DNA of 32,000 nucleotides from Brachybacterium equifaecis (GTDB taxonomy: Bacteria; Actinomycetota; Actinomycetes; Actinomycetales; Dermabacteraceae), in assembly GCF_023509525.1 (NCBI RefSeq), contig NZ_JAKNCJ010000007.1:79727-111726 (forward strand), written 5' to 3'. This document shows, one piece after another, positions 3,682 to 23,377 of the stretch (positions are counted from its first letter, which is position 1; every line of letters begins with the position of its first letter). Below the pieces are notes generated by a model. That model saw only the letters and a list, made by a program, of their open reading frames with translations, did not search any database and had not been told where the DNA came from. The position numbers were made by a program, and so were the translations under genes.

Positions 3682-3714
3682 GCGGGCCGACGAATAGGTG
3701 CGGCGGTGGGGCCT

Positions 3715-5736: not shown

Positions 5737-5769
5737 GGATGCTCCTTCAGGGCGAGGACGGGTAGGCGG

Positions 5770-6654: not shown

Positions 6655-6680
6655 TCCGGGTCCACTCACGCCGGGCCCGC

Positions 6681-7208: not shown

Positions 7209-7270
7209 GTTTGCTCCTTCTCCGGGGGTCCGCCGAGGGGGCGGGGTGATGATCGCGGGGCGCGCGAGGG

Positions 7271-8911
7271 TCAGTCGTCGTGCCCGATCTTCTCGTTGAT
7301 GATGCTCTTGTAGAGCACGGCCTTGCCGCCGTAGACGGCCTGGACGCCGCCGGCGACCTCGAAGACGTCGACCGCGCCGAGCTGGCGCAGCCGGGCCTTG
7401 TCGACCTTCGCGGGGTCGTGCACCGAGACGCGCAGGCGGGTGATGCAGGCGTCGACGTCCTCGAGGTTCTCCGCGCCGCCGAGGGCCTCGATGATCTGCA
7501 CCGACTCCTGCTCGAGGACCTCCTGCTTGGAGCCCTTCACCGCGGCCGACGACGCAAGGCTCGGGGCGGCAGCGGCCGCAGGGGCGGCGGAGGTCGCTGC
7601 CTCGTCCTCCGCGTCGGCCTCCGCGCCTCGGCCGGGGGTCGCGAGGTTGAAGCGGGTGATGAAGAAGCGGAAGGCCACGTAGTACAGGCCGAACCAGATC
7701 AGGCCCACGGGGATCACGTACATCCAGTGGGTCTTGTCCTGGCCCTGGAGGATGCCGAAGAGGGTGAAGTCGATGGCGCCGCCGGAGAACGTGTTGCCGA
7801 TGCGGATCTGCAGGAGGTCGGCGATGAGGAACGACAGGCCGTCGAGGAACGCGTGGAACACGTACAGCAGCGGCGCGACGAACAGGAACATGTACTCGAT
7901 GGGCTCGGTGATGCCCGTGATGAACGAGGTCAGCGCGACGCCGAGGAACAGACCCGCGAACTTCTTCCGGCGGCCCTTCGGCACGCAGTGGTACATCGCC
8001 AGGCATGCGCCCGGCAGGCCGAACATCATGGTGTCGAAGCGGCCCGCGAAGTACTTCGTGCCCTCGGTGTAGAGCCCCTGGTGGGTGGGGTCGGCGAGCT
8101 GCGCGAAGAAGATGGCCTGGGCGCCGGAGACGCTCTGGCCTGCGACGACCTCGGTGCCGCCGAGCGGGGTGTACCAGAACATCGGGTAGATCATGTGGTG
8201 CAGGCCGACGGCCCCGGAGAGCCGCAGCAGGAACCCGTAGAGGAACGTACCGAACGCGCCGAGCCCGGCGATGCCCTCGCCCGCGGAGACCAGAAGGTGC
8301 TGGAACGGCGGCCAGATGAGAAAGAACAGTGCGCCGATCGGGATCGCGATCAGCGAGACGATGATCGGCACGAAGCGGGATCCGCCGAAGAAGCCGAGGA
8401 TCTGCGGGAGCTGGATGTTGTGGTACCGGTTGTGCAGCCACACAGCGACCGCGCCGATCACCAGCGCGCCGACGATCCCCGTGTCGATGGCGGCACCCTC
8501 GGGGTCGAAGATGGTCAGCAGCGAGGCGGTGGTGCCGGTCATCACGAGGTAGCCGACGATGCCGGCGAGGGCCGCGGTGCCCTTGTCCCGCTTCGCCAGG
8601 CCGATGCACAGGCCGATCGACAGCAGCAGAGCGAGGTTCGCGAAGACCACGGAGCCGGCGTCTGCCAGCACCGTGAACAGGCCCTGCAGGACCGGGTTGT
8701 CGAGCACCGGGTAGGTGGCGACGGTGGTGGGGTTCGACAGCGCCCCGCCGACGCCGAGGAGGAGACCGGCGGCGGGAAGGATCGCGATCGGCAGCATGAA
8801 CGCCTTGCCGATCTTCTGGAGCTGCTTGAACGGAGCGCCGGCGCGCTCCTTGAGGGACCTGGGGGACTCGGCCGGAGCGACGGCGCTCGCCGAGGGGGAT
8901 GCGGAGGACAT
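7271..8911 (-). CDS. PTS glucose/N-acetylglucosamine-family EIICB permease
   Basis: 546 aa. The EIIC core has KIGKAFMLPIAILPAAGLLLG...GITEPIEYMFLF. The C-terminal EIIB has the phospho-Cys motif DACITRLRVSV. Confidence 0.9.
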   Translation of the reverse strand: MSSASPSASAVAPAESPRSLKERAGAPFKQLQKIGKAFMLPIAILPAAGLLLGVGGALSNPTTVATYPVLDNPVLQGLFTVLADAGSVVFANLALLLSIGLCIGLAKRDKGTAALAGIVGYLVMTGTTASLLTIFDPEGAAIDTGIVGALVIGAVAVWLHNRYHNIQLPQILGFFGGSRFVPIIVSLIAIPIGALFFLIWPPFQHLLVSAGEGIAGLGAFGTFLYGFLLRLSGAVGLHHMIYPMFWYTPLGGTEVVAGQSVSGAQAIFFAQLADPTHQGLYTEGTKYFAGRFDTMMFGLPGACLAMYHCVPKGRRKKFAGLFLGVALTSFITGITEPIEYMFLFVAPLLYVFHAFLDGLSFLIADLLQIRIGNTFSGGAIDFTLFGILQGQDKTHWMYVIPVGLIWFGLYYVAFRFFITRFNLATPGRGAEADAEDEAATSAAPAAAAAPSLASSAAVKGSKQEVLEQESVQIIEALGGAENLEDVDACITRLRVSVHDPAKVDKARLRQLGAVDVFEVAGGVQAVYGGKAVLYKSIINEKIGHDD

Positions 8912-8940
8912 GACGGCTCACCTCTACGTGAGTGCGGTCA

Positions 8941-8967
8941 GGTCTCGCCTCCGCGGAGTAACGACCC
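8941..8967 (-). promoter_or_regulatory. RAT (ribonucleic antiterminator) element, target of the BglG/LicT-type regulator, in the PTS operon leader
   Basis: Minus strand reads GGGTCGTTACTCCGCGGAGGCGAGACC. The recalled RAT consensus is GGATTGTTACTGC-N4-GCAGGCAAAACC. The conserved GTTACT, the paired CTCC/GGAG (for CTGC/GCAG) and the AGGC-A-ACC tail are all present. It ends 29 nt before the EIICB ATG. Confidence 0.6.
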
Positions 8968-8981
8968 TGTCAGTGGGGTCC

Positions 8982-9011
8982 AGGGTAGCGGTGGGGTCGG
9001 GTGGGGGACAA
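8982..9011 (-). promoter_or_regulatory. Putative promoter of the PTS operon
   Basis: Minus strand reads TTGTCC (9011-9006), an 18-nt spacer, then TACCCT (8987-8982). The predicted start is a few nt upstream of the RAT, as in other RAT-controlled leaders. Confidence 0.3.
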
Positions 9012-9040
9012 GGACATTGGGCCCGGGGGAAGCGTGTGAG

Positions 9041-9070
9041 GGGCCGACGGGGGAGGGCCGACGGGCCGAC
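9041..9070. repeat. Three overlapping direct copies of GGGCCGAC(GGG) in the 3' flank of the giant gene
   Basis: GGGCCGACGGG at 9041-9051 and 9055-9065, and GGGCCGAC at 9063-9070. Function unknown. Confidence 0.5.
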
Positions 9071-9096
9071 CCCGCCGCTTCCCGTCCGGCCCCCCA

Positions 9097-12000
9097 TCAC
9101 CGCACCGCCGACGACCCCGGCAGGATCCCTCCCTCGAGCATCCGCGCGAACGCCCCCTCCGTCACGATCGGGATGCCATACGTGCGCGCCTTCGCGGCCT
9201 TGCCCGACAGGGAGTCGGGATCGCCCGCGACGACGAGCTTGGTCTTCTTGGTGACGCCACCGGGGTCGAGCCCGAGGCGGCGAGCGTCGGCCTCCCACTG
9301 CTCGCGGTCGCGCTGCATGGAGCCGGTGAAGACGATGCGGTCGCCCGGCTCGAGGGTGATGCCTGCGGTGCGGATGCTCTCACGGCCTGGGGTGATGCCT
9401 TGGGCGCGGTTCGACTCGGCCCGGCTCAGCGCCCGGTCGATATCGGAGTCGGTGAGGCCGAGCGCGGCCGCCGTGCGGTCCATCTCCTCGCGCTCCTCAT
9501 CGGTGACCACGCCATCGGCGAGGACGACCTCGGCCAGGGCGTCGAGGTAGGAGGCGTGCAGCTCGAGCGCCTGATCGCGGGAGAGGCCGAGCTCTGAGGC
9601 AAGCGAGACCAGCTCCTCCTTCTCGTGGTGGCTGAGCACGCCATCGAGCAGGGCGCGCTCGAGGACGGCCAGATACGACTCCGCGTTCAGTCCGGCGGCG
9701 CGCGGGATGGAGGATGTCATCCGCTCGAGCCAACCGGCCGGGGCCACAGATCGGGCCTGCTCGCGGTGCAGCAGGGCCACCCCATCGCCCGCAACGCCCA
9801 GCGCCGGCCAGGTGAAGCGCTGCGCGTCCTCGAGGATCTCCTGCCACGGGAGAGGAGAACCGTCGAGCAGACCCAGGTAGTGCCTGAGGAGTGCGGCAGT
9901 CGCGCGGGCGTCACCTCCGGCGGAGTGAGCGTCCCTCAGATCGATCCCCGCCGCGCCGCAGCAGTCGACGAGTTTGCGTGAGGGAGCCTCCAAGAAGGTG
10001 CCCGACCAGTGCATCGTGCACAAGCTCGGCAGAGGCTCGAGGGGAACGCGGCCGGCGCGGGTCAGCTCGGCGCTCAGGAAGCGCATATCGAAGGGGGCGT
10101 TGTGTGCGACGAGCACGCGACCATCGGCGGCTGCCGCAAGGCGGGGAAGGATCTCGTGGAACGAGGGCGCGGCGGCGACGTCGCTCGCGGTGATGCCGTG
10201 GATGTGGGAGTTCGGAATGTCCCGGCCCGGGTTCAGGAGCGTGGACCACTCGTCCTCGATCTCCCCGGTGGGGGAGACCTGCACGACGCCGAGCTCGAGC
10301 ACGCGGTGGTGGCGACCCGGAGAGAGACCCGTGGTCTCGAGGTCGATCACGGTGTACCCCGACCCTCGGGAAGATGCGGAGGTGCTGCTGACCGCGGCCC
10401 GGCGCCCGTGGCGCGGAGCGGCATCGGCCGAGGGCGCGGGCGACGGCTCGACGGGTTCTGCAGAAGCCGAGGCCTCCGACACGGACTCGACCGTCGGCGC
10501 GGAAGCAGGAGGCACCGCAATCGGCGTACTGGAGTCCTCCGCCGATACCTGGTCGGCGGCACCATCGCCGGGTGAGGGGTCGGCGCCGGCGAGACCGAGA
10601 CGCTTGCGCTCCTCGGCGACGAGAGTCTTCTGCAGGCTGATCTCGTCGGTCTGGATGGCAGAGCCGTGGCCGTCCTTCGTGGCCGACTCGCGTGCGTAGT
10701 CGTCGAACACGGCGGTCTTCTGCGCGAGGAGCTCGACGATGCGGGAGTCCACACCCTCTACGGAGAGCAGCCGGTGCACCTGCACGGAGCGCTGCTGGCC
10801 CATCCGGTAGGCGCGCGCGATGGCCTGCACCTCGAGGGAGGGCTTGATCTGGGGCTCGCAGATGACGACGACGGACGCGGACTGAATGTTCAGGCCCTCG
10901 CCGCCGGCTTCGATCTGGCTGACGAGGACTGCACCCCCGGGCTGGGAGCTGAATTCGTCGACCAGCATCTGGCGTTGCTCGGGGCTGACGGAGCCGGTCA
11001 GCGGGCCGAAAACCGGGCCGGGCAGGAGCCCGACGAGAGAGTCCAGAGCTGCGCGGAAGTACGAGAAGACGAGGACCTTGCGATCGTTCTGGATGGCCTC
11101 TTCGCAGATGTCGATGAGCTGCTCGATCTTCAGGGAGCGCAGGCCTCCGCGCATCGCCGCCTGACGCATCCCCATGAAGTTCCCGCTCGCGACGGCGCTC
11201 TCGTAGTGCTGACGGTCGACGTCGGAGAACTCGACCCAGTCCTCGACCTCCACGAGATCAGGCAGCTCGCGCAGGACGTCCTCCTGGTTCCTGCGCAGAT
11301 AGGCCGGAGCGATGTGCCGACGGAAGGCCGCGGGAAGAAGGCCCTCGGCGGAGCGCGCGAGATCAGGGTTCATGTACCCGAGCAGAGTGCGGAACTCCTC
11401 GAGCCGGTTCTCCAGTGGGGTGCCGGTCATGAGGATGGCGTGCTCAGCTCGGCCGATCTGACTCTGCGCGGCCTTCGTGCGCTGGGCGGCGGGATTCTTG
11501 ATCTTGTGCGCCTCATCGACCACGACGGTGTGCAGCGTGGTGAACTCACCGTTGCGCAGCAGCGCACCGAGGGTCGCGAAGGTCGTGATGCCGACGCCGC
11601 CCGTGGCCTGCCACTGCCGCACCGCCTCATCGCGCCCGGGACCGTGGAGCCGGAACGCAGGCAGCTGCGTCTTCGAGCCGATTTCGCGCATCCAGTTGGT
11701 GAGCACGGACGCAGGGCAGATCACGAGCGTGCGGTCCTGCCCTTGCTTGTGGAGGTGGGTGATCGCGGCGAGCGCCTCGACGGTCTTGCCGAGTCCCATC
11801 TCGTCACCGATGATGACGCGCTTCTGCAGGAGCGCGAAGCGGGCGGCGAACTGCTGGTAGCGCCGCAGGCTCGGCAGCGTGAGCAGGGTGGTGTCGAGGT
11901 CGACGTCCTCGATGAGGCGGATGAGCGGCTCGGGAAGATCGCCGTGGGTGTTCGTGACGATCCGCTTCTCAAAGCCCATCGCGCTGAGCTGGGCGACGTA

Positions 12001-13254
12001 GAGCGCGGTGTTCTCCGCGAGGTCCTGAGTGGGATCAGCGGAGAGACGCGCACGGGCGGTCTCGTCGAGGTGTTCGCCGCGGTGGTTCCGCTCTATCCGA
12101 TCGGCGATGTCGATGAGCCGCTGAGCTGCGCCGCGCGCAACTCCCCCACTGCCCGCGATGATGAGCGAGGGGGAGGACCCGAGTTCGGGAGCGAAGAGGT
12201 CCCGGGGGTCTGTTCTCGAGGCGGAAGGCATTGGTACGGCACCGAGCTCGTGAGCAAAGTGGAGATCCTCGGCATCGTCGCGGTGGATCAGTTCGAGGCG
12301 CTGTACATCATGGAGCAGGGCGGCCAGATGCTGGATCGCCGGATCCTCCAGGCGAGTGAGGTCGATCTGGGCCTGCTCACGTGCCCGGGCCTGGAGTCCC
12401 TGGGCCTCGCGAATGAGTGTGGTCGCCATGGCGTTGCTGATGCCGTTGATGGTGCCGAGTCTGTGCGTGCCGGTGGCGAGGATGTCCGCGACGGTGCGGA
12501 TCCCTGCGCCGGCCAGCGCGCTCGTGGGGAAGCGCCCAGTGATCTGGCTGCGGAAGTGGTCCATGTCGATGTCGGCGAGGGCGCGCTGCGTATCGGCGAC
12601 CAGGACGGCTCGGGCCGCCAGATCCGCTGCGGCGGTGGCATCTTCCGTGCGTACTTCGGCGCTCAGCAGAGTGATCAGGGCAGAGCGGATGCGGAGGGTG
12701 AGCTCAGACGAAAGCGCGACTACGGCATGCGTGCGCGTGGGGCTTGCGACCTCGATGGTGCGGCACAGCTCGGCGGCGCTAGCGGGGCGGGAGACGGGAA
12801 CCTCGAAGGGGAGCTGCAAGGCGCGGGCAGCGTCGGGGTGCTGCGACGTCGCGATCTCGTTCTGGAGGAAGGTGAGGGCGGCCGCTTGGACCTGGGCATG
12901 AGGGCGCCCGCCGAGGATGCGATCGAGGAATCCTCGTGGCTTCGGCTCTGCGTCACTGATCGCGGTGGGGAGGGACGTGCGCATCGCCTCCATCCATACG
13001 GCGGATTCGGGCGTGGGGCTGGGCTGTGCCTGATCACGGCGCAGCGCGGCGACGCCTGACTCATCCTCGGGGGTGAGGAAGCTCCAGGTGAAGTCCGACG
13101 GAGAGCGGGGACTCCCTGGGGGGAGGAGTGCTTCGGCTGCGCGCTGGGCCTTCTGCGTGATCGCGTGACGATCGCTCAGCACACGTTCGATGCGTTCATG
13201 GAGCGTTCGTGCTTGCGCGATGAGCTGCTGGGCGACGTCGGTGTCGGGTTCCAC
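9097..13254 (-). CDS. 1385-aa multidomain protein: unknown N-terminal region, SNF2-family ATPase, DEDDh (DnaQ-like) 3'-5' exonuclease, TerB-like repeats, BRCT domain
   Basis: GTG 13254 with GAAGGA 5 nt upstream. SNF2 motifs: GDEMGLGKT, VVVDEAHKIKN, MTGTPLENRLEEF, QAIARAYRMGQ (aa about 460-850). An Ala/Ser/Pro-rich linker spans aa about 885-965. Exonuclease motifs: VIDLETTGL, VAHNAPFDMRFL, HSAGGDARATA (aa about 966-1130). TerB-like repeats: LLDGVLSHHEKEEL and LADGVVTDEEREEM. BRCT: IVFTGSM...KLVVAGDPDSLSGKAAKA..GIPIV (aa about 1300-1375). Confidence 0.85.
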   Translation of the reverse strand: MEPDTDVAQQLIAQARTLHERIERVLSDRHAITQKAQRAAEALLPPGSPRSPSDFTWSFLTPEDESGVAALRRDQAQPSPTPESAVWMEAMRTSLPTAISDAEPKPRGFLDRILGGRPHAQVQAAALTFLQNEIATSQHPDAARALQLPFEVPVSRPASAAELCRTIEVASPTRTHAVVALSSELTLRIRSALITLLSAEVRTEDATAAADLAARAVLVADTQRALADIDMDHFRSQITGRFPTSALAGAGIRTVADILATGTHRLGTINGISNAMATTLIREAQGLQARAREQAQIDLTRLEDPAIQHLAALLHDVQRLELIHRDDAEDLHFAHELGAVPMPSASRTDPRDLFAPELGSSPSLIIAGSGGVARGAAQRLIDIADRIERNHRGEHLDETARARLSADPTQDLAENTALYVAQLSAMGFEKRIVTNTHGDLPEPLIRLIEDVDLDTTLLTLPSLRRYQQFAARFALLQKRVIIGDEMGLGKTVEALAAITHLHKQGQDRTLVICPASVLTNWMREIGSKTQLPAFRLHGPGRDEAVRQWQATGGVGITTFATLGALLRNGEFTTLHTVVVDEAHKIKNPAAQRTKAAQSQIGRAEHAILMTGTPLENRLEEFRTLLGYMNPDLARSAEGLLPAAFRRHIAPAYLRRNQEDVLRELPDLVEVEDWVEFSDVDRQHYESAVASGNFMGMRQAAMRGGLRSLKIEQLIDICEEAIQNDRKVLVFSYFRAALDSLVGLLPGPVFGPLTGSVSPEQRQMLVDEFSSQPGGAVLVSQIEAGGEGLNIQSASVVVICEPQIKPSLEVQAIARAYRMGQQRSVQVHRLLSVEGVDSRIVELLAQKTAVFDDYARESATKDGHGSAIQTDEISLQKTLVAEERKRLGLAGADPSPGDGAADQVSAEDSSTPIAVPPASAPTVESVSEASASAEPVEPSPAPSADAAPRHGRRAAVSSTSASSRGSGYTVIDLETTGLSPGRHHRVLELGVVQVSPTGEIEDEWSTLLNPGRDIPNSHIHGITASDVAAAPSFHEILPRLAAAADGRVLVAHNAPFDMRFLSAELTRAGRVPLEPLPSLCTMHWSGTFLEAPSRKLVDCCGAAGIDLRDAHSAGGDARATAALLRHYLGLLDGSPLPWQEILEDAQRFTWPALGVAGDGVALLHREQARSVAPAGWLERMTSSIPRAAGLNAESYLAVLERALLDGVLSHHEKEELVSLASELGLSRDQALELHASYLDALAEVVLADGVVTDEEREEMDRTAAALGLTDSDIDRALSRAESNRAQGITPGRESIRTAGITLEPGDRIVFTGSMQRDREQWEADARRLGLDPGGVTKKTKLVVAGDPDSLSGKAAKARTYGIPIVTEGAFARMLEGGILPGSSAVR

Positions 13255-13478: not shown

Positions 13479-14126
13479 ATGAACAGCACCGATCGGGAAC
13501 TCCCCGGCATCTTCTGCCTGGAGGGCGAGTGGAGCGATGACCTGCAGAGCCGGCTCAGCGTGCGCCCGCTGCTGGAGCTCCTCGAGAGCCTCGAGATCGC
13601 GCAGTCGATCCACAGGGATGTCGCGACGGTAGGAGACTTCGGGTACTACCTGGACAAGTGGCAGGAAGACAGGTACCAGAACTTCGGAATCCTCTACCTC
13701 GCAATGCACGGAGATCGAGAGACCATCCACCTCGGCGGCGATGAGGTCACTCTCGCAGAGCTGGGGGAAGCCCTGAAGGGCCTCTGCGCCGGCCGGGTCA
13801 TCTATTTCGGTTCCTGCTCGACGATGAAGGCGGGCGACAAGGAGCTCATGGAGTTCGCGAAGATGACCAAGGCCCGCGCGGTCGTCGGGTACCGACGTGT
13901 GGTCGATTGGACCGAGGTCGCCCCGTTCGAGCTGGTGCTCCTCCAGGAGCTGGCCACGCGGGTCAGGTCCACCGCCATCTTCCGTAGCCTCAGCGACAAC
14001 CACCCCGTGATGGCGAAGAAGCTCGGTCTGGTCGTGGCGACGAAGAGCGGGGTCCAGAAGGTCGCTCTGCGCGAACGTCTGGGAGGTGAGACCGACAAAT
14101 CGGGGCGGCGCGACGGCCAGCTCTGA
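13479..14126 (+). CDS. Uncharacterised 215-aa protein with a caspase/CHAT-like His...Cys arrangement
   Basis: Clean ORF with normal composition. A hydrophobic strand ends in His-Gly (GILYLAMHGD). About 36 residues later a hydrophobic strand ends in Cys (RVIYFGSCST). The N-terminus GIFCLEGEW begins an alpha/beta fold. The gene is convergent with brxL and divergent from the SNF2 giant. Confidence 0.7.
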   Translation: MNSTDRELPGIFCLEGEWSDDLQSRLSVRPLLELLESLEIAQSIHRDVATVGDFGYYLDKWQEDRYQNFGILYLAMHGDRETIHLGGDEVTLAELGEALKGLCAGRVIYFGSCSTMKAGDKELMEFAKMTKARAVVGYRRVVDWTEVAPFELVLLQELATRVRSTAIFRSLSDNHPVMAKKLGLVVATKSGVQKVALRERLGGETDKSGRRDGQL

Positions 14127-14189: not shown

Positions 14190-16304
14190 TCACCCCTCCT
14201 TGATGTAAGTGATGCCGAATGCGAATACTTGGCGGAACTCCTGGCGGCGGGAGCCGAGGTCGAACTGGCCGCCGGAGCCCTTCTGGAAGATGTCGAGACC
14301 ACGTCCCAGAACGAGCTTCCAGCCGTGGTTCGTGCGGATCGATCGGTCGTGGATGGTTTCGTCCCACATGACGGTGAACTTGATACCGACGGCTGCGGTG
14401 CTGTCCTGGATGTCCCGGAGCATGAGGAGGTGCTGCTGTGCGTATTCGCTGCGGTCTTCCTTGGTCACCAGCGTTACCGCGATCTCGTCGGCAGGGTCTT
14501 TTGCCGCTGCCAGCAGAGCCAACAGGTCAACGAGGTTGCGTCCCTGGTGCGGTAGCCGGATGTAGGGGTCAACGATGGTGATGCTGGTGGCATCGCGCAG
14601 GTAGGGCATGAGCAGCGTTTCGTACGACACCCCACGCTGGTTCTCCTGGAACTCGCGGTGCCCTTCGAACAAGGACGCCGCCACCTCGGGAGCAACTGGA
14701 GTCGCAACTGCGACCTCTGCTTGCGCGGACCCAGGCTCCGCCGACGACCCTACTTTCCCCTTGGCCTCGAGATGGCGAGCCTCGTAGTGGTCGGGATACT
14801 CGTCCTCTTCCAGTGTGGTGACTCCACTCCAGGTGCCTGATTTGTCGGAGTAGCCGAAGTTGACGGCGGCCATTGTGGTGTCGATCCGAAGAATCTGGTC
14901 CTTGACGCGCTTACGTCCTTCGACGGCGAAGCGCAGCAGTTCCTCGATCTCCTCTTGCGTGGCCTCGCCGCCTGGGTAGATGAGCTTCATCAGGCCGGAG
15001 AAGGTCTTGTGGATGCCGTCGCGGTCTCGTGTGGAGATGTCTGAGCCGAGCGTGAAGTGCGGCTGGTAGCGGTCGGAGTAGTCGGTGTTCCGCATGGATC
15101 GCAGCACTTCGGCGATGTAGTCGACGACGAAGCCGTACCCGGAGGAGAACATCTCGCTGCGGATCGTGTCTACCTCCCAGCCGGGGATGTAGAAGTGGAG
15201 CCGGTCGAGGTAGGCGGAGTCGTGATAGGCCTCCGGTAGCTCGTCGAACAGGTCAGAGTGCTTGAGCATGTAGGGCACGTTGTGCGAGGTGTTGCCCACG
15301 AACACCATCGACGCTTCAGCTCCGAGTGTCTCGACGCCGCGGGAGAATGACTTGTTCGCCATGTAGTTCTTCATGATGTCGACGAGCGCCTTGTCGGTGC
15401 GCTTCTTCTTGCCGGCGAACTCGTCGAAGGCCACCACGTCCCAGTAGCCGACAAGGCCGATGCGACCGTTGGCGTTGTTCACGAAGAGCTTCGGAACGGT
15501 GACCTCGCCACCGGAGATCAGCATGCCGTGGGGTGAGAACTCGGAGTAGATGTGTGACTTGCCGGTGCCCTTCGGTCCCAGCTCGACCAGGTTGTAGTTC
15601 CGCTCGACGAACGGGATGAGACGGACGAGTTGCAGCAGCTTGGCCCGTCGTCCGAACATCTCAGGGTTGAACCCGATGGACTGGATCAGCAGATCGATCC
15701 ACTCTTCGGTGTTGAACCCCTTGCGCGACGCGAGGTAGCCCTCGTAGTCGAAGCTCGACATCTGGATGGGCTTCAGGCTCCCCAGAATCCAGGGCACGAC
15801 GCGGGCGTCGTCGCTGTGGAAGTACTCGATGTCGCAGATGCACCAGACGCCGCCGACCAGCAGCTTTGGGTTCGCCTTCACTGTTGCAGGTTCGACGATG
15901 ACGCCGGTGAGCCCGAGGTTGGCGAACGAGGCCTGGTACACGTCCTGCTTGTCGTTCAGCGTCACGATCACCTTGTCGATGATCCGGTGGCGACCCTTCT
16001 CACGGATGGTGGACTTCACCAGTTCCGACTCGTTGCGGTGCACGTAGTGATCGGCGAGAATCTTGCGCACCGCATCGATACCGGCCTGGATCGTTGCCTC
16101 GTCGTCGGAGGCGGCGTATTGGCCAAGCAGGTACTCCAACACGTAGGAGGGGACGATCGCGTTGCCCTTGACGGCCTTCACGAGGTCTTTGCGGACGACG
16201 GAGCCACCGAACAGCAGGTTGATTTTGTAGTCAAGATCGCTCTGCTGCGGTGTGGCTGACTCGGTGTTGCGTTCCTCGCCGGAGTGGCTCTCGGTGTCCG
16301 TCAT
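14190..16304 (-). CDS. brxL: BREX BrxL-like AAA+ protein whose C-terminus is an MIT_C-type PLD-like domain instead of the Lon-like domain
   Basis: Start at ATG 16302-16304 (GAGGAAGC upstream, 14 nt after the pglZ stop). The N-terminus YKINLLFGGSVVRKDLVKAVKGNAIVPSYVLEYLLGQY...KLLVGGVWCICDIEYF is near-identical in pattern to BrxL. Walker A is GPKGTGKSH. The last ~155 aa (TIVDPYIRLPHQGRN...IHDRSIRTNHGWKLVLGRGLDIFQ) match the MITD1 C-terminal domain signature. Confidence 0.85.
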   Translation of the reverse strand: MTDTESHSGEERNTESATPQQSDLDYKINLLFGGSVVRKDLVKAVKGNAIVPSYVLEYLLGQYAASDDEATIQAGIDAVRKILADHYVHRNESELVKSTIREKGRHRIIDKVIVTLNDKQDVYQASFANLGLTGVIVEPATVKANPKLLVGGVWCICDIEYFHSDDARVVPWILGSLKPIQMSSFDYEGYLASRKGFNTEEWIDLLIQSIGFNPEMFGRRAKLLQLVRLIPFVERNYNLVELGPKGTGKSHIYSEFSPHGMLISGGEVTVPKLFVNNANGRIGLVGYWDVVAFDEFAGKKKRTDKALVDIMKNYMANKSFSRGVETLGAEASMVFVGNTSHNVPYMLKHSDLFDELPEAYHDSAYLDRLHFYIPGWEVDTIRSEMFSSGYGFVVDYIAEVLRSMRNTDYSDRYQPHFTLGSDISTRDRDGIHKTFSGLMKLIYPGGEATQEEIEELLRFAVEGRKRVKDQILRIDTTMAAVNFGYSDKSGTWSGVTTLEEDEYPDHYEARHLEAKGKVGSSAEPGSAQAEVAVATPVAPEVAASLFEGHREFQENQRGVSYETLLMPYLRDATSITIVDPYIRLPHQGRNLVDLLALLAAAKDPADEIAVTLVTKEDRSEYAQQHLLMLRDIQDSTAAVGIKFTVMWDETIHDRSIRTNHGWKLVLGRGLDIFQKGSGGQFDLGSRRQEFRQVFAFGITYIKEG

Positions 16305-16318
16305 GGCTGCTGCTTCCT

Positions 16319-18814
16319 CTAGAAATCGAAGTCCGATGTGAACGAGCGCTTGAGCAGGTACTGAGCCCGCTGGTAGACGCGCCACTGGGTGGTGTTGGGT
16401 ATCTGCTCTTCGAGCCGGAACTCGACCGTGCGGTTGTTGAACTCGTTGGCGTCCTGGCTGAGGAGCATCCGTGCACTCTGGTAGCGGTCGCGCTTGTCAT
16501 CGGAGGGTTGGTCGAAGAGCAGCTCGGGCTGATTCGAGATCAGGGTCTCGCCGACGTAGAGGCCGCCGCGTAGCGTGCGAGCCTGGACCTTCTCGCCAAC
16601 CGGCTCGGACTGGAAGAGCTTCACGACGAGCTGGCCGGTGGTGATCTTGTCCGTCTCGGGCAGCACCTCGACGTTGACGGGCCGAGTGTCGCTCTTGCGC
16701 TTCTTGTTGACGGTGAGCACCGGCACGACGATTTCCTGGAGCGCGGCACCGCCGTGAACGAACCGGGAGCCCGCGCCCGGCAGCTTGAGTCGATGGATCG
16801 ACTTGGGAAGCTGCACCTCAAGGTCGCTGCTGAGCCCGAGCTGTTCAGGCTCGAACTTTCGGAACGCGGGATCATCCTTGAGCCCTCGGCCGAGCACGTA
16901 CCGGCGGTTCGTCACGACAAGTTCGTCGCCCTGCGGCTTGGTCGAGAGGTAGGAGGCGTCGGCAAGCGCGGTGTCCTGGTAGAGGAAGCCGTGGTCGGCG
17001 GTCACGAGGATATTCGTGGCGTTCGCATTGGTGAGGCGTTTGATGAGGTCGACCAGTTCGCGCAGCGCGTCGTTGGCGGCCTCGAACACCTGACGTTCGG
17101 TGCGGGCCTTGTCGCCTGCGGCGTCGATCCGGTCGTGGTACACGTACAGCACTTGGTGCGCTCCGTAGAGTTCGCGCAGCTCGCCGCGCGGCATCGCGAG
17201 AACGTCCTCAGCCTGGATCGCGAACCCGTCCACCGGAGCCAGCACCTTGTTGCGGTTCGCCGTCCCGTCGGAACGCTGGCTGTCGACGAGCACCGGGTCA
17301 CCATCGCGTGAGTGGGCAAGCGTCTTGTGCGGAAGCAGGGCGGCCATGCCGAGTTGGGTATAGCTCGGTAGCACGCCGAGCATCGCGTCGAGCTCCGCGT
17401 CGAAGCGGTCTTCCTGACGGATACGTGAACCCAGTTCGTCGGCGACCTCGTAGCGCAGCGCATCAGAGATGATGACGACGGCCTTCCGGCTGCCCTTTCT
17501 GATGATGGGCTTGACGTGATCGGTGAAGAACCTTGCCTGCGGGCGGAGTGCGACTGATCGCCAGTCAGACACGGCATCGACCTGCTGCTGCCAGGCGTTG
17601 CCTAGCTCGTAGAGGTATCGGTTCGCGTAGTGCTTCTCCACCTCGACCCGGAGCGCTTCGAGCGGGCCTGCATACTCGGTTGTGCGGGCGGCAAAGTGAA
17701 ACTGTCGGTACAGCTGGTCGATGCGGAACCAGTGCTTGCGGTACCGGTCGAGTCCGTCATCGAACGACGCGATCTCGAACCTCGCAGTCGCGAGATCACT
17801 CAACAGGTCAGAGGCAGCGGCGAGCGCCGCGTAGAGTTCCCGGTAGCCATCAACCCAGACGCTGCTCTGTCGAGAACGGATGACCTCGGACACCTCGCGT
17901 GCGCTCATTGTCCGCTCGACGATCGCGTGCACCAGCGCGCTGATGATCTTGCGCTCCACGTCCTCGAAAAGATCGTTTCCCACAAGCTCAGCCAGTTCGG
18001 CATCCTCGATGGTGTTGGCGTAGTCGAGACTTTCAGCTGCGCGCCGAGCCAACGTGGCGAGCGCATCGGCGCTGCGTCGGTCGTTGCGCAGACTCGAGAA
18101 GTCAAGCTGGATATTGCGCAGGGCTCCGGGCGTGTCGGACGCAAACCCGTTGATCGCCTGGCGGAACATCCACAGCACGAAGTCATCGACGCTGGGCTCA
18201 CTTGCTTCGTAGCCGTAAATCTTGGCAACACCGGCCCAGTGGAAGCCATCGAGACCCTGCTCGACCAGCGCGGCGTACTTGGTGTGCGCGCCCCGCGCGT
18301 TCTCGATCAGCAACGCACGCGTGAGCTCCAGCATGCTGTGCTCGCGCTGGCCAAGCACCACTGCTGACATCTTCGCTCGCAACCTGTCGGCGTCATCGTT
18401 GGTCGCGAGGAGGGATTTGAGGCTCTGGACTCGCTTGACGGCTCGGAAGAACTTCTCGTGCTCTCGCACCACCTCGTCGATCCCGCTACCGCTGAGACCA
18501 AGGTCTTGGCTCACGAGCGCGGTCCGGTCAGCGGTGAAGACCCCATAGGCCAACTCAAGATCAAGCAACCAGTTGCCAATGCCCGGAGGCACAGGAGCGC
18601 CTCGGTACAGGAGAAACTTGCCCACCGGCTCGTCGTGGAGCACTCGGCTCTTCAACGCGTACTCGTTGTTCTCCACTCGCACAGTGGTCACACCCTTGAG
18701 ATCAAGCGCGTCGAGCTCGACGGCGTACTCGCCGTCAGCGTCGTGCCAGAACACCAGGCGCTCTGACTCGAACCTCTGCTCCAAGTATGGCAGGACAGCA
18801 CTGAGCGAACTCAT
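16319..18814 (-). CDS. pglZ: BREX PglZ (alkaline-phosphatase-superfamily) protein
   Basis: 831 aa. The N-terminus LVFWHDADGEY...FLLYRGAPVPPGIGNWLLDLELAYGVFTAD is typical of BREX-1 PglZ. The PglZ core has VVIISDALRYEV...LPSYTQLGMAALLP...VTADHGF. Confidence 0.95.
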   Translation of the reverse strand: MSSLSAVLPYLEQRFESERLVFWHDADGEYAVELDALDLKGVTTVRVENNEYALKSRVLHDEPVGKFLLYRGAPVPPGIGNWLLDLELAYGVFTADRTALVSQDLGLSGSGIDEVVREHEKFFRAVKRVQSLKSLLATNDDADRLRAKMSAVVLGQREHSMLELTRALLIENARGAHTKYAALVEQGLDGFHWAGVAKIYGYEASEPSVDDFVLWMFRQAINGFASDTPGALRNIQLDFSSLRNDRRSADALATLARRAAESLDYANTIEDAELAELVGNDLFEDVERKIISALVHAIVERTMSAREVSEVIRSRQSSVWVDGYRELYAALAAASDLLSDLATARFEIASFDDGLDRYRKHWFRIDQLYRQFHFAARTTEYAGPLEALRVEVEKHYANRYLYELGNAWQQQVDAVSDWRSVALRPQARFFTDHVKPIIRKGSRKAVVIISDALRYEVADELGSRIRQEDRFDAELDAMLGVLPSYTQLGMAALLPHKTLAHSRDGDPVLVDSQRSDGTANRNKVLAPVDGFAIQAEDVLAMPRGELRELYGAHQVLYVYHDRIDAAGDKARTERQVFEAANDALRELVDLIKRLTNANATNILVTADHGFLYQDTALADASYLSTKPQGDELVVTNRRYVLGRGLKDDPAFRKFEPEQLGLSSDLEVQLPKSIHRLKLPGAGSRFVHGGAALQEIVVPVLTVNKKRKSDTRPVNVEVLPETDKITTGQLVVKLFQSEPVGEKVQARTLRGGLYVGETLISNQPELLFDQPSDDKRDRYQSARMLLSQDANEFNNRTVEFRLEEQIPNTTQWRVYQRAQYLLKRSFTSDFDF

Positions 18815-19857
18815 TCCGCGTCCTCCCGTTCTGAGGAAGCTTCGAGCTCGCGACTTGCGACGCGCTCGGCTGCTGCCTCATAAACCTGCTGGATTCGGGC
18901 CTGAAGCTCAGCTTTCGGCGGCAGCGCCGTCCAGTACTCCGCCACCGCGATTCCGTCCTTATGCATCTCCAGTAGTTCGATCTGCTCGCGGCTCGCCGCA
19001 GTGCAGAGAATCAGGCCGATCGGCGGTTCCTCTCCCTCCCTGCGTTCGTGGCGGTCGAGCCACTTCAGATAGAGCTTCATCTGGCCCTCGTAAGCGGCCT
19101 TGAACTTGCCGATCTTCAGTTCGACGGCGACGAGGCGTCGCAGAGGCCGACTGAAGAAGAGCAGGTCGAGATGGTAGTCATCGTCGTCAATGATCATTCG
19201 CTTCTGTCGTTCGACGAAGGCGAAGCCGTTCCCCGCTTCGAGCAGGAATGCCTCCATGTCCCGGATGATCGCGGCTTCAAGGTCGCGTTCGAGGAACGTG
19301 TCTTCCAGGCCGAGGAAGTCCAGCAGGTAGGGGTCGCGAAACACATCTCGCGGGACAGCGCTCTCGCCAACGATTTGCGCGTTGGCGATCTCGCGGCGCT
19401 CGTAGCCCTTCCGCGCGATTAGTTGCCGCAGGCCGCGGACGCTCAGCCCCTGGCTCACGGCCTCCTGCACGTAGAAGGCTCTGGCCTCGGGGGTCTTCAG
19501 GGGAAGCAGCGCCCGGAAATGCGTCCAGCTCAATTGTCGTCCCAGCGAGACGACAATCTGCTCGTCCGGGAACTGCTGGGCAAACTGGATCATGCGGCGG
19601 AGGTTCTTCTCCTCGTACGAGCGCCCGTACTGCTCCACTAACTGTCGTCCCAGCGACACGACAATCTGCTCCCCGTAGGCGGCTCGCTCCGAGCCGAGCA
19701 GCTCCTCGCCAACGAGGCGGCCGAGCCGCCAGAAGGTCAGCGTCAGGGCCAGGTTGGCTTGACGAGCAGCCGCAGCCTGCCCCTTCTCGATCACCTCTAA
19801 GGCGCGAGCGAGCAAGTCTCGCTCTGCCTCCCCGCTGCTTCGAGCGATCTCAGTCAT
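18811..19857 (-). CDS. DUF1016/YhcG-family PD-(D/E)xK nuclease embedded in the BREX operon
   Basis: 348 aa. The N-terminal YhcG-type region has QLSWTHFRALLPLK...ARAFYVQEAVSQGLSVRGL. The C-terminal nuclease core has FAFVERQ...YHLDLLFFSRPLRRLVAVELKIGKF (D...ELK). It overlaps pglX by 8 nt and pglZ by 4 nt (ATGA). Confidence 0.85.
   Translation of the reverse strand: MTEIARSSGEAERDLLARALEVIEKGQAAAARQANLALTLTFWRLGRLVGEELLGSERAAYGEQIVVSLGRQLVEQYGRSYEEKNLRRMIQFAQQFPDEQIVVSLGRQLSWTHFRALLPLKTPEARAFYVQEAVSQGLSVRGLRQLIARKGYERREIANAQIVGESAVPRDVFRDPYLLDFLGLEDTFLERDLEAAIIRDMEAFLLEAGNGFAFVERQKRMIIDDDDYHLDLLFFSRPLRRLVAVELKIGKFKAAYEGQMKLYLKWLDRHERREGEEPPIGLILCTAASREQIELLEMHKDGIAVAEYWTALPPKAELQARIQQVYEAAAERVASRELEASSEREDAE
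19531..19671. repeat. Two 33-bp direct repeats (30/33 identical, 108 bp apart), each containing an internal inverted repeat, inside the DUF1016 gene
   Basis: 19531-19563 is CAATTGTCGTCCCAGCGAGACGACAATCTGCTC. 19639-19671 is TAACTGTCGTCCCAGCGACACGACAATCTGCTC. Copy 1 carries ATTGTCGT...ACGACAAT; in copy 2 the left arm is ACTGTCGT (one mismatch). Both encode EQIVVSLGRQL. Confidence 0.8.
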
Positions 19858-22800
19858 CGGTCGCGTCCAAACTTGCGATCTTCTTGAGGGCCGGGTAGAA
19901 CTTCGGGTAGTTGGCCTTCACCCCGTCATCGAGGTCGATGGCGATCTGCTGAGACGCCAGCGGGTAGAGCACGTCATGTTCGTACTCGCTGAGTTCCACC
20001 AGCACCTTGCGGAGCCGCTCGGCTTCCTTCAGCGCCGCTGCCTTCTCGCGAGGCGTACCCTCCCCGGCGGCGAGACGCTCCTGGTGCTGGAGGTTCGCCT
20101 CCAGCTTCGACTCGAACTCACGCAGGTACTCGTTCAGCACCGTTGAGACCGTGGACGGCGTGTAGCGGTGCATGTAGATCAGCGCGTTGAACGATCCCTT
20201 CGGGCTGGAGAACAGCCAGTAGATCGGGCGCTTCTTGTACCGCTGGACGTGATCCTTGTAGAACGCCTTCACGAAGTAGTCACGTAGACTCCTCACGCCG
20301 AGCGATTCGGTGACGCAGCGTAGGTTCTCCTCGAAGTGCCGCTCACCAAACGTCGTGCGTAGGAATCGGCGGAAACGTTCGACGATGTCGTCCTCGAACC
20401 AATCGCCATCCACGATCGGGATCACGTTGTCCTCGTCCGGGGTGAACGTCGGTGAGGATATCTGCGCGAGGTAGTCCTGTACCGTCGTCCCCTGGTCGGC
20501 GAGGATGAGCCCCGGGCGGTCAAGGCTATACCTACCGAACATGCAGCCGACCGCGAACGAAACCAGATCAACAACGAGTTCGCGCCGAGCCGCACGTTCG
20601 GGATCATCGGCAGTCGCGAATGCGTATTCCGCGTTGCCGAGGAGCGTAATACTGGAACGCGCCACGGACGCGGTACCCTCGCTCGCCTCGCCTAAGGCCT
20701 CACCAATGGCGTCTTGGATTTGCTGCTCGATCGAAAGAAGGTTTGCAGTACGCTGCTGCCCCAGCGAACGACAGCGATCAATCCACGACTCCAGCGTGCC
20801 TGGGCTAAATTCGGACGGAAGAGCAGTGAATCCTGGCGCGGTCTCCTGCGTCAGCCAGTCTTCTCTGGCGATCTCGATCGCGTCAGTGGCCCGACGCTCA
20901 ATTTGCTGAGGATCGACGTTCGGAAGTGGAAGCCGAGCAAAGTCACCTGCCTTGAAGTGATGAGTCGGGTTCAGAAGGTCCGCGAACTCTGACCCGTACT
21001 TGGTGTTGACAAGGGCCAGCGCCGCAAACATTGCCTCTCGCTCGGAGCGCGGGTACGCGCACAGGCCGGTTGCGTCGAAGAGAAATCCTGGCGGGTAGTA
21101 CCGCAGAGCAAGACCACGACTCGTGATTGAGGACCACGAGACGGCTTCCCTGAAGATGAACTCAAGGTTGAAATTGTGCGCCCATACACGCGAGCCACTC
21201 GGGTGGAGGGTCGTCTGGAGCTCGGCTCCGTCGTTGTACCAGTCGACGACGAACTCATCGTGACCATACCAACGCCTTGGACCGCCTCCCTTGTTGTAGG
21301 GGAACCAGCGTTTTTTGCTCTCCTTCCCGGATTCACGGCTCTCTGCCCACCGGTTCGTGGCAGACGCTGCGACTTCCCACCAGAAGCGCAGGTATCGAGC
21401 ATTGTTCCCCGTAGCCATCCCCTCCCTGGGGTTGAGCACGTCTCCCAGATGCGGACCTGAGGCAAGAGCTTTGAGCCCCGCCTCTGACATCCAGTAACAA
21501 ACTGGAGCGCCAGGGATCGCGAGAAAATCGCTGAGCCTACGACGGAACACCCTGCGCGATGCCGTGATGGCTCCAAGCAGCGCGAGCTCCTTCGCCGCCT
21601 CATTCTCACCATCGACGAGCCGGGCGAACCAACACTCTCGACCCGAGTCGTGAAGTCTCAAGACGAACGCCGCAGTCGAGGCAACTTCGCCGCTCAGGCT
21701 GTCGAAAGCCCCGGCTCCAAAGTGAAGAACTTGCTCAAGTTGGTGAGCTGCCAAGAGCTTGCTGCGAAGCGCAGCGAAGGCCGGGCGAAAGAGCCAGTTT
21801 TGTTTTGCGATCATCGAGACGATGCCGCCGCGAACGGCGAGCGTCTGCGCTCTTTGGATGAAGGTCGCGAAGAGATCGGCTTTGGCGTCAGGCATAATGC
21901 GCTGGATAAAGTCCTCTAGGAGACCGGCCATGTTGGATGAGCCCATGTACGGAGGGTTCGCGACCACGACAAGATGCCGTTGGCTCAGGTACTCAGCTTG
22001 ATCGATGACGCGCTTGGCCCAGTCGAGCGCGTCGGCGCGAAGTAGGTCGCCGCGGGCGTGGAGCGTGGAGAGGTGGCGTGCGAGCCGTACTGTCAGATAG
22101 GGGTCAGGCTCAATGAGCGACCCGAGGGTGTCGGCCTCAGCGAACTGGTTCCAGAACAGTCCCTCTGCGTGCTTGTCGCCATCCTCGGTGACGAGGTAAT
22201 CCAGCTCGTCAGGGCTGAACGAGATCGGTTCGAGCACGCAGATGTTGGGCTTGACCTGCTTACCAAGAAACGTACGCTGCTTGGCCCGTGCCTTCATCGT
22301 AAGTGCGAAAGCTGCGAGGGTACCTGCACGCGGGTCGATCTCGGTGCCGTAGAGGTTGTGGGTAAGGATCAGTTCGGGAATCTCGGAGGGCGCGTAGCCC
22401 TCTTCTTCGTAGATCGCGTAGAAGAGGTCGAAGGCGTAGGTGAGCATGTGACCAGAGCCGCAGGCCGGGTCGATGATTCTCAATTCCTCGGGGCTGCTGA
22501 TCGTGAGGAAGTCTGTCTCCTCGTTAAGAGGGGCGATGTAGTAGTCCATCTGCTCGATGAGCCGAGAGGACGGGTGGTTGAGCATCCAGAGGCGGCCAAC
22601 GGAGTTCTCTACGAGGTATCGGACGATCCAGTGTGGGGTGAAGAGTTGGGTCGCGGCGGGAATCTCAGCGGCGCCGGCCTTCTTGCCTTTCTTGAACCCG
22701 GCAAAGACTTCGTCTTTCCGTTCGGAGATGTAGAACTGGTAGAGCCAGCCGATGACCTCAACGTCGCGGCAGGCTGCTGCTGTGAACGTCGATGCGGCCT

Positions 22801-23365
22801 TGCTGAGGATGGAGTCTGCGGCGAGAAGGTTGGCGGGGATGAGGAGTTCGGTGTAGTCGCCCTCGCGCTCGAACATGAACGGCATTGAGCGGTTCCAGTA
22901 GCGGCAGTACTCGGCGAGTAGCAGGGTGTAGGCCTCACCATGGGCGTCTGTGCTGGGGCGGGTTCCGTCGAGGAGGCCAGTGATGGCGTCGAGGGTGCGC
23001 TTGTTGCTGACGACAGCAGGGTCGATGCTGCCCCGCTTGGCGTCGGCGAGTATCTCTGGTTGTCCGGTCTGCTGGCCGTGGGCTGGCGAGACGACCCCGA
23101 TGCCGGTGTAGCCGTTGGCGTCCATGAAGCGGAGGGCGATGATGCGGTTGAACCAGGTGTAGGCGACCTTGTCGGCGATCGCGTTCTTGCCCTTGGCTCC
23201 GCCGCCGGCCGCCGCGATGTCGCGTTCGAGTATGGTCACGGCGCGCTGGTTCTCGACTCGCTCCGGCGATGCGGGTGCGAGCACGGCGGTCAGGCGGGCG
23301 CTGACCTGAGTGATGAGTTCGCGTCTGGCCCAGGTGGCGAAGCTCTTCAGCGGTGCGATTTCCAT
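19850..23365 (-). CDS. pglX: BREX-1 PglX N6-adenine DNA methyltransferase
   Basis: 1171 aa. The N-terminus ...KVAYTWFNRIIALRFMDANGY is typical of PglX/BrxX. SAM motif IIDPACGSGHML. Catalytic motif VVANPPYMG. Confidence 0.95.
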   Translation of the reverse strand: MEIAPLKSFATWARRELITQVSARLTAVLAPASPERVENQRAVTILERDIAAAGGGAKGKNAIADKVAYTWFNRIIALRFMDANGYTGIGVVSPAHGQQTGQPEILADAKRGSIDPAVVSNKRTLDAITGLLDGTRPSTDAHGEAYTLLLAEYCRYWNRSMPFMFEREGDYTELLIPANLLAADSILSKAASTFTAAACRDVEVIGWLYQFYISERKDEVFAGFKKGKKAGAAEIPAATQLFTPHWIVRYLVENSVGRLWMLNHPSSRLIEQMDYYIAPLNEETDFLTISSPEELRIIDPACGSGHMLTYAFDLFYAIYEEEGYAPSEIPELILTHNLYGTEIDPRAGTLAAFALTMKARAKQRTFLGKQVKPNICVLEPISFSPDELDYLVTEDGDKHAEGLFWNQFAEADTLGSLIEPDPYLTVRLARHLSTLHARGDLLRADALDWAKRVIDQAEYLSQRHLVVVANPPYMGSSNMAGLLEDFIQRIMPDAKADLFATFIQRAQTLAVRGGIVSMIAKQNWLFRPAFAALRSKLLAAHQLEQVLHFGAGAFDSLSGEVASTAAFVLRLHDSGRECWFARLVDGENEAAKELALLGAITASRRVFRRRLSDFLAIPGAPVCYWMSEAGLKALASGPHLGDVLNPREGMATGNNARYLRFWWEVAASATNRWAESRESGKESKKRWFPYNKGGGPRRWYGHDEFVVDWYNDGAELQTTLHPSGSRVWAHNFNLEFIFREAVSWSSITSRGLALRYYPPGFLFDATGLCAYPRSEREAMFAALALVNTKYGSEFADLLNPTHHFKAGDFARLPLPNVDPQQIERRATDAIEIAREDWLTQETAPGFTALPSEFSPGTLESWIDRCRSLGQQRTANLLSIEQQIQDAIGEALGEASEGTASVARSSITLLGNAEYAFATADDPERAARRELVVDLVSFAVGCMFGRYSLDRPGLILADQGTTVQDYLAQISSPTFTPDEDNVIPIVDGDWFEDDIVERFRRFLRTTFGERHFEENLRCVTESLGVRSLRDYFVKAFYKDHVQRYKKRPIYWLFSSPKGSFNALIYMHRYTPSTVSTVLNEYLREFESKLEANLQHQERLAAGEGTPREKAAALKEAERLRKVLVELSEYEHDVLYPLASQQIAIDLDDGVKANYPKFYPALKKIASLDATDD

Positions 23366-23377
23366 GCGTCTTGTCTC

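Follow-up and report, generated by a model that had tools for sequence, protein, structure and literature searches.

We analysed a 32,000-nucleotide stretch of Brachybacterium equifaecis DNA (hereafter the window; contig NZ_JAKNCJ010000007.1, positions 79,727 to 111,726), which carries on its minus strand the gene brxL of a type 1 bacteriophage exclusion (BREX) system. This gene encodes a BrxL in which an MIT_C domain, as known from the C-terminus of human MITD1, replaces the Lon-like C-terminal domain. The longest open reading frame (ORF) for brxL spans 14190-16385 (-) and has 731 amino acids (aa) from a first GTG at 16385. Judging from the sequence, the true start is almost certainly the ATG at 16307, giving 705 aa, because an AGGAAG ribosome-binding site lies 8 nt upstream of it, the pglZ stop lies 12 nt before it, and homologues are 700-710 aa long. 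Residue numbers below are those of the 731-aa ORF, and subtracting 26 converts them to the 705-aa protein. The first-pass annotation of this DNA had numbered its residues in the same way, which is right for the longer ORF and 26 too high for the 705-aa protein, and the residues it quoted from 14190-14663 (-) are indeed aa 575-731 of the former. The GC content of the three codon positions (0.61/0.38/0.84) is typical of a real gene. The gene and its parts are:

14190..16307, minus strand: brxL gene, 705 aa plus stop, start almost certainly at ATG 16307
15822..16214, minus strand: BrxL_N, N-terminal DNA-binding region, aa 58-188 (Pfam, 5.6e-47; aligns to 8EMC)
14874..15788, minus strand: BrxL_ATPase, AAA+ domain, aa 200-504 (Pfam, 1.6e-128)
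14664..14873, minus strand: connector, aa 505-574, ~70 residues, a beta-hairpin and helix also present in canonical BrxL, followed by a Glu/Ala/Pro-rich linker
14190..14663, minus strand: MIT_C domain (MITD1-type phospholipase D (PLD) fold), aa 575-731 plus stop

The Pfam matches to BrxL_N and BrxL_ATPase bear out the earlier identification of the first ~500 aa as BrxL, and the motor motifs are intact (Walker A GPKGTGKS at 15555-15578 (-); Walker B VVAFDE at 15420-15437 (-), its Glu identified by alignment to 8EMC and to the E280Q mutant 8EMH). The family models separate this motor from what follows it. The NCBIfam model TIGR02688, which covers the N-terminal region and ATPase only, was matched at 614.5 bits (cut-off 329.3), and TIGR02653, the model for Lon-related BrxL, scored 595.6 against a cut-off of 628.25 that it thus did not reach, aligning over profile positions 2-470 of 675 only. 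Likewise, a sequence search of the PDB aligned Acinetobacter BrxL (8EMC) at an E-value of 1e-138 over aa 48-516 only, and human MITD1 (4A5Z/2YMB) to aa 578-712 at 3.7e-19; the latter alignment also shows that the MITD1 sequence given in the first-pass annotation (EDPYIR...) was correct.

The tail itself is a full-length MIT_C domain. The Pfam envelope covers aa 585-729 (window 14199-14633) and profile positions 1-142 of 142 at an E-value of 7.9e-43, and MIT_C (PF16565) scores 146-151 bits against a cut-off of 25 whether the full protein or the tail alone is scanned (tail alone, aa 575-731, 2.6e-44). At E-values up to 10 the tail-only scan returned a single further match, to DeoC and under that family's cut-off, and none to Lon_C, so that the domain came out as had been predicted from the letters. 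Pfam found no N-terminal MIT (ESCRT-III-binding) domain in this BrxL.

Predicted fold of the C-terminal domain

A model of the tail was built as an AlphaFold2 monomer prediction of aa 505-731 from an alignment of 38 sequences. Its mean predicted local distance difference test score (pLDDT) is 85, with values of 95-98 across most of MIT_C and of 77-89 at model residues 191-210. The first ~35 residues form a hairpin and a helix, the hairpin falling within the part that still aligns to 8EMC, and are followed by a disordered linker stretch, KGKVGSSAEPGSAQAEVAVA (14703-14762 (-), model residues 38-57, pLDDT <50). This Glu/Ala/Pro-rich linker is hypervariable across the aligned BrxL sequences.

Compared against the PDB with Foldseek, the model had MITD1 chains as its top matches (E-values 1e-15 to 4e-17, root-mean-square deviation 1.6-1.7 A over 156 columns, 32% identity). 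The template modelling (TM) score to the MITD1 C-terminal domain (4A5Z/2YMB) was 0.90-0.92, normalised to the target and taken over three chains that hold only this domain, in line with the superposition anticipated by the first-pass annotation. The next matches were human PLD1, phosphatidylserine synthase, vaccinia F13, Zucchini/PLD6, Streptomyces PLD and PLD3, at E-values of 6e-4 to 8e-3 and Foldseek probabilities of 0.99-1.0, which place the tail within the PLD fold. No Lon structure was among the Foldseek matches. A cryptic Lon-like fold in aa 500-731, the outcome against which the earlier claim had been staked, is ruled out: there was neither a Pfam match at E-values up to 10 nor a fold match, and only ~70 residues are available for it between ATPase and MIT_C.

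A putative conserved polar pocket

Three short conserved motifs stand out in the domain, and the quoted residues carry 731-aa numbering:

14556..14570, minus strand: DPYIR motif, D606, P607, Y608 and R610; the Asp is a putative catalytic-pocket acid; kept in human MITD1
14328..14354, minus strand: IHDRSIRTN, the HKD-equivalent motif, H679, R681 (Lys replaced by Arg) and N686 (Asp in most relatives)
14292..14306, minus strand: GRGLD motif, second conserved pocket block; kept in MITD1

Within the second of these, IHDR lies at 14343-14354 (-), and TNHGW at 14319-14333 (-). The motif reads H-D-R-S-I-R-T-N and therefore departs from the canonical HxK(x)4D, with the His kept, the Lys replaced by Arg and the Asp by Asn. 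To place these residues in a wider context, we drew on a scan of one genome per species with the single peptide LGRGLDIF[QH], in which 314 species genomes encoded a relative; locus counts here and below refer to the best 80 of these 314 genomes, all of them Actinomycetota. DPY-R, H-D-R, GW and LGRGLDIFQ, along with a Q, an N and a T, are invariant in 80/80 loci, and the last motif position is D in 70/80, N in 9/80 and E in 1/80. The family consensus is thus H-D-R(x)4D, and the HxRxxxxN motif that the first-pass annotation had read as shared holds for this BrxL and for human MITD1 but not for the family. Its description of a "degenerate HKD" motif is apt in so far as Lys has given way to Arg, and misleading for the remainder, the His, the Arg and the other pocket residues being invariant.

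Conservation extends well beyond these loci. Among 139 diverse representatives (34-55% identity), the residues conserved at 90% or more are D, P, Q, N, T, H, R, W, G-L-D and R. Across 38 sequences with identities down to 31%, G81, D102, Q110, N113, T137, R177, G192, L193, D194 and T222 are invariant, and H175, P103, Y104, R106 and G184-W185 are conserved at 90% or more (numbering of the aa 505-731 construct). Human MITD1 is matched at 1e-46 by a profile of prokaryotic family sequences and has these residues at the corresponding positions. The domain as a whole is nonetheless the faster-evolving part of the protein, its median identity to the window protein being 78% vs. 87% for the motor, and lower than that of the motor in 68/68 loci. 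Such rapid change around a fixed polar core has the look of a working pocket rather than a relic, and argues for a site that is functional rather than decayed, since the His, the Arg and the other pocket residues stay invariant although the domain evolves faster than the motor.

Distribution of the MIT_C-type BrxL

The first-pass annotation had called this a domain swap in a core BREX component, which is correct, and the swap is both common and published. PADLOC holds five BrxL models, of which PDLC02508 (698 positions) matches this BrxL end to end (aa 49-730 on profile positions 2-695/698, 1134.6 bits; tail alone 8.6e-52), and the MIT_C-type subfamily was therefore catalogued by 2023. In the study of Li et al. 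2025 (PMC12065111), many BrxL proteins were reported to end in MIT_C (e.g., WP_019470419.1), and a 2026 survey of BREX diversity in Nucleic Acids Research (PMC12839542) described an "HKD-endoDNase" with an HRD motif that replaces Lon in 1030/2913 type 1 taxa with BrxL, which supplies the survey of frequency that had been called for. The latter study showed an AlphaFold3 model and proposed an auxiliary nuclease role for the HRD domain. The MIT_C-type BrxL is thus already described, in about one third of type 1 BREX systems with BrxL, and the present locus is an ordinary member.

A full-length homologue search gave at least 8000 candidates, of which the best 120 matches listed are 87-100% identical; all 120 combine BrxL_N, BrxL_ATPase and MIT_C (PF20442, PF13337 and PF16565), and they span Leucobacter, Enemella, Dermacoccus, Micrococcus, Brevibacterium, Corynebacterium, Nocardiopsis and other actinobacterial genera. 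Searching with the tail by itself yielded only fragments no longer than 270 aa, whereas an exhaustive HMMER search over 1.84 billion representatives gave 970 clusters (50% identity) with the MIT_C domain at E-values up to 1e-3. On plasmids, 20 of the 318 records with BrxL cover the tail, including ones from Rhodococcus, Methylomonas and Hymenobacter, and the MIT_C-type BrxL therefore crosses phyla; the listed plasmid copies from E. coli, E. fergusonii, Salmonella and Acinetobacter are all of the Lon-related type. The eukaryotic MIT domain occurs in none of the 139 nearest representatives. In the genome scan, the BrxL motor lies immediately upstream of the tail on the same strand in 77/80 loci, and at least 64/80 have pglZ immediately upstream of brxL.

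Two of the other three loci are cut by a contig end, and the third (L015, positions 273-3486, from a metagenome-assembled genome of Buchananella hordeovulneris) has a BrxC-like ORF of 884 aa that goes out of frame near its end and overlaps a BrxL-like ORF, whose BrxL-like part runs from within the ATPase lid to MIT_C. This locus reflects either a large internal deletion of the BREX operon (brxC-brxL) or a mis-assembly.

The N-terminal and AAA+ region of BrxL is 85-99% identical across actinobacterial genera and orders, including Micrococcales, Propionibacteriales and Mycobacteriales, far above what vertical descent would lead one to expect and thus a sign of recent horizontal transfer; divergence is faster in the MIT_C tail and in the linker than in this region. 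Database names hide the swap: NCBI calls the MIT_C-type protein "BREX system Lon protease-like protein BrxL" via TIGR02688, though it has no Lon-like domain, and JGI calls it "ATP-dependent Lon protease". Outside BrxL, MIT_C is found fused to DUF7669, DUF6884, GmrSD_N, GIY-YIG_2, IF2_N-like regions and a PglZ fragment (P0247, P0251, P0258, P0264, P0269), and in one metagenomic protein (P0234) two copies of MIT_C alternate with S1 domains.

The BREX operon and the surrounding island

All of brxA-brxB-brxC-pglX-pglZ-brxL are present in order on the minus strand over 14190-28121, with brxL as the last gene. Upstream of brxL the operon contains:

16319-18814, minus strand: pglZ (Pfam PglZ)
18811-19857, minus strand: YhcG/DUF1016 PD-(D/E)XK gene (Pfam YhcG_C, 7e-45, and DUF1016_N; PADLOC candidate PDC-S02, 9e-120)
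19850-23365, minus strand: pglX (Pfam Eco57I/N6_Mtase)
23378-26908, minus strand: brxC (Pfam BrxC domains)
26905-27504, minus strand: brxB (Pfam BrxB)
27501-28121, minus strand: brxA (Pfam BrxA)

The YhcG/DUF1016 gene sits between pglX and pglZ and overlaps each by a few bases, and for that reason it probably encodes an accessory nuclease translated together with the BREX operon.

GC content falls from ~72% in the left housekeeping flank to 61-63% in the BREX operon and to 55-56% at 29-31 kb. Together with an IS3-family transposase, this drop fits a BREX region that looks like a horizontally acquired defence island; no tRNA gene marking an integration site was found in the window. The left flank (1-9 kb) consists of housekeeping genes, for an NmrA-like protein, an esterase, NanE, a BglG-type antiterminator and a phosphotransferase system (PTS) EIIBC component. 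The other features of the window are:

5053-5736, minus strand: NanE (Pfam)
5770-6867, minus strand: BglG/PRD antiterminator (Pfam)
7271-8911, minus strand: PTS EIIBC (Pfam)
9097-13254, minus strand: SNF2-DEDDh fusion gene, 1385 aa, just beyond brxL, with a helix-hairpin-helix motif, SNF2 helicase, DEDDh/RNase T exonuclease, a TerB-like segment and a weak BRCT match
13479-14126, plus strand: DUF6642 gene, convergent with brxL and ending 64 nt from the brxL stop
29223-30095, minus strand: class I S-adenosylmethionine (SAM) methyltransferase (Methyltransf_25/31/23), low GC, upstream of brxA
29968-30612, minus strand: 214-aa ORF overlapping the SAM methyltransferase gene, low GC, with a hydrophobic N-terminal stretch and no family match
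30966-31900, plus strand: IS3-family transposase (HTH_Tnp_1, then HTH_21 and rve)

The 1385-aa SNF2-DEDDh protein, possibly the product of another defence gene of the island, matches DpdE-like (4e-168) and DrmD-like (3e-127) models in PADLOC and, over its C-terminal 400 aa, the candidate PDC-S48 (5e-155). As a conserved partner of MIT_C-type BrxL it was rejected, since it occurs within 3 kb in 0/80 related loci, and so was the DUF6642 gene, which has no NCBIfam or PADLOC match and adjoins brxL in 1/80 (L041). Two long plus-strand ORFs, 3706-7299 (1197 aa) and 7280-9550 (756 aa), were considered as unknown defence genes and set aside as shadow ORFs of high-GC sequence, because their codon-position GC is wrong, they have no family matches, and the minus-strand genes have Pfam matches.

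A candidate nuclease half-site on a DNA-loading ring

What, then, might the MIT_C tail do? By analogy, we lean, with little better than even confidence, towards a nuclease half-site carried on a DNA-loading AAA+ ring and active only when two copies pair, because of the invariant D-P-Y...H-D-R...G-R-G-L-D residues and the precedent of Druantia DruE. A nuclease reading of the domain was proposed in both PMC12065111 and PMC12839542. DruE of Druantia type III ends in two MITD1-like PLD domains, whose pocket (D1740, H1830, D1917, R1918, Y1919, R1951, H1999, R2001 and S2022, including an H-x-R element) is required for ATP-coupled degradation of ssDNA in vitro and for defence (preprint 10.64898/2026.05.13.724313). 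GmrSD_N, GIY-YIG and PglZ, to which MIT_C is fused in other proteins, are nucleic-acid or defence domains.

The working of such a half-site can be sketched as follows. The N-terminal and AAA+ domains would form, in an ATP-dependent manner, a hexameric ring that encircles double-stranded DNA, as has been shown for Acinetobacter BrxL, with the ~45-residue flexible linker tethering one MIT_C lobe per subunit. Two MIT_C domains, from neighbouring subunits or from two rings placed tail to tail, would then pair into a phosphodiesterase site; we infer that they must pair because active sites of the PLD superfamily are built from two lobes and BrxL has one per subunit. In the paired site, His679 would be the nucleophile, with Arg681, Asp606 and the GRGLD loop holding the phosphate, and once BREX has loaded BrxL onto unmethylated phage DNA, the site would cut that DNA and supplement PglZ with a nuclease layer. 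A self-pairing domain would fit the C-terminal position in BrxL, since the Lon-like domain of canonical BrxL mediates tail-to-tail dimerisation of the rings (PMC10164562).

A number of points weigh against a nuclease. This BrxL has Asn at the last motif position vs. Asp in most relatives, and the family profile run against PDB sequences reached MITD1 only and no canonical HKD enzyme, so that membership of the PLD superfamily rests on the fold. We found no experimental paper on the MIT_C-type BrxL, and a Lon-related BrxL is present in the studied BREX systems that we met (E. coli, E. fergusonii and Salmonella plasmid loci; the Acinetobacter BrxL structure). Early BREX work reportedly saw no degradation of phage DNA, and we know of no report of catalysis by MITD1. 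Membrane binding is the only function named in the title of the MITD1 structure paper (Hadders et al. 2012). Finally, Lys-to-Arg is the standard inactivating mutation in classical PLDs, as in PLD1 K898R (PMC2172799), and given that mutant it is an assumption that activity is preserved here despite the same exchange.

The same exchange, which kills classical PLDs (PMC2172799), would speak for MIT_C as a structural pairing module that joins two BrxL rings tail to tail, or docks BrxL to another BREX protein, without chemistry and with its conserved residues stabilising the interface. The C-terminal domain of canonical BrxL is catalytically dead, ring dimerisation being its demonstrated role (PMC10164562), and the PLD domain of MITD1 has been discussed as a dimerising element (PMC9477494). 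However, conservation from actinobacteria to human falls on polar or charged residues (D, Q, N, T, H, R, D), as is typical of a pocket and not of a hydrophobic interface, the equivalent pocket is catalytic in DruE (10.64898/2026.05.13.724313), and type 4 BrxL works without any C-terminal domain (PMC12839542). We thus regard purely structural pairing as unlikely.

The first-pass annotation had suggested that the domain could redirect the AAA+ ring to the membrane or to nucleic acid, and of these the nucleic-acid role has the better support. If MIT_C were a membrane anchor, it would tie the BrxL ring, through acidic phospholipids, to the inner membrane at the site of phage DNA entry, which would suit MITD1 as by far the closest solved structure (32% identity, TM score ~0.9) with a PLD fold that, in the title of Hadders et al. 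(2012), "binds membranes". Yet BrxL acts on DNA threaded through its pore (PMC10164562), elsewhere in prokaryotes MIT_C is fused to nucleic-acid enzymes and not to membrane proteins, and the invariant residues match the nuclease pocket of DruE (10.64898/2026.05.13.724313), all of which makes such an anchor very unlikely.

Highly improbable, in our view, is a phosphate-ligand sensor, in which a nucleotide, a DNA end or a modified base bound in the pocket would gate the ATPase by allostery, with nothing being cleaved: the conserved pocket does have an Arg-rich, phosphate-binding character and the flexible tether would permit regulatory docking, but a PLD-fold sensor has no precedent in defence systems and Pfam found no signal-generating enzyme in the operon. 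An artefact, that is, a frameshift, mis-assembly or chance ORF fusing brxL to an unrelated gene, has nothing for it beyond the one Buchananella locus that resembles a brxC-brxL deletion or mis-assembly, and is excluded by the same three-domain architecture in all 120 best homologues listed, the same arrangement in 77/80 loci, the full-length PADLOC model and the codon-position GC of brxL.

Returning to the nuclease half-site, the presence of the same conserved pocket in human MITD1 suggests, from sequence comparison, enzymatic activity there as well. It is tempting to go further and speculate that the tail is no free-standing DNase and that its half-site becomes competent solely through a tail-to-tail encounter of two DNA-loaded BrxL hexamers, so that cleavage would be licensed by collision as in type I and type III restriction enzymes, and that human MITD1 would likewise be a cryptic dimer-activated phosphodiesterase and not a pure membrane binder, although we consider this combined proposal quite unlikely. 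How BREX stops phages is still debated, and a BrxL variant with a plausible nuclease is a good entry point to that question, since all the well-studied BREX systems rely on a BrxL of the Lon type, a point already present in PMC12065111 and PMC12839542. The present locus adds one more ordinary actinobacterial example, and would be a reasonable test system, with its complete operon and intact motor motifs, and with H653, R655 and D580 of the 705-aa protein (H679, R681 and D606 above) as residues that can be named for point mutants.

Comparison with known systems

Canonical BrxL (Acinetobacter, 8EMC/8EMH; TIGR02653) shares with this protein the ~470 residues of the N-terminal and AAA+ regions (1e-138), the Walker A and B motifs and the place as last gene of a BREX-1 operon. 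Its inactive Lon/RadA-like domain of ~200 residues is absent here, and a PLD-fold domain on a disordered tether stands in its stead. That domain resembles the C-terminal domain of human MITD1 (4A5Z, 2YMB; PF16565) in fold (TM score 0.90-0.92), in sequence (32% identity) and in every family-invariant residue. In contrast to MITD1, whose known function is membrane binding in cytokinesis, BrxL lacks the N-terminal MIT domain and the ESCRT-III context, and carries the tail on a DNA-translocating ATPase in a phage-defence operon.

Among nucleases of the same fold, the single-HKD PLD enzymes (Nuc, Zucchini/PLD6 and BfiI) also have one lobe per chain and need dimerisation to form their site, and Zucchini is matched in fold at 4e-3. 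Classical PLD nucleases need no metal. The motif of the single-HKD enzymes is HxK(x)4D...GSxN, whereas the BrxL tail has Arg for Lys and GRGLD as its second block, and the profile search of PDB sequences gave no sequence-level match between these enzymes and the tail family. Closer in setting is DruE (10.64898/2026.05.13.724313), which shares the MITD1-like PLD fold, the Asp, His and H-x-R pocket, an ATP-driven DNA motor and membership of an anti-phage system, and whose nuclease activity has been shown experimentally. DruE has two PLD lobes in one chain on a superfamily 2 helicase, with one set of the Asp...His and H-x-R elements per lobe, whereas BrxL has one lobe per subunit of its AAA+ ring; the two share no detectable sequence match, the tail hitting only the BrxL model in PADLOC (E-values up to 0.01).

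The nearest relative in every respect is the HRD-type BrxL of type 1 BREX (PMC12065111; PMC12839542; PDLC02508). Both have an N-terminal DNA-binding region, an MCM-like AAA+ domain and a C-terminal MIT_C/PLD domain with H-x-R, occupy the operon position after pglZ, and match the PADLOC model over its full length. They differ in nothing of substance, the Asn that replaces Asp at the last motif position here being found as well in 9/80 relatives and in human MITD1.

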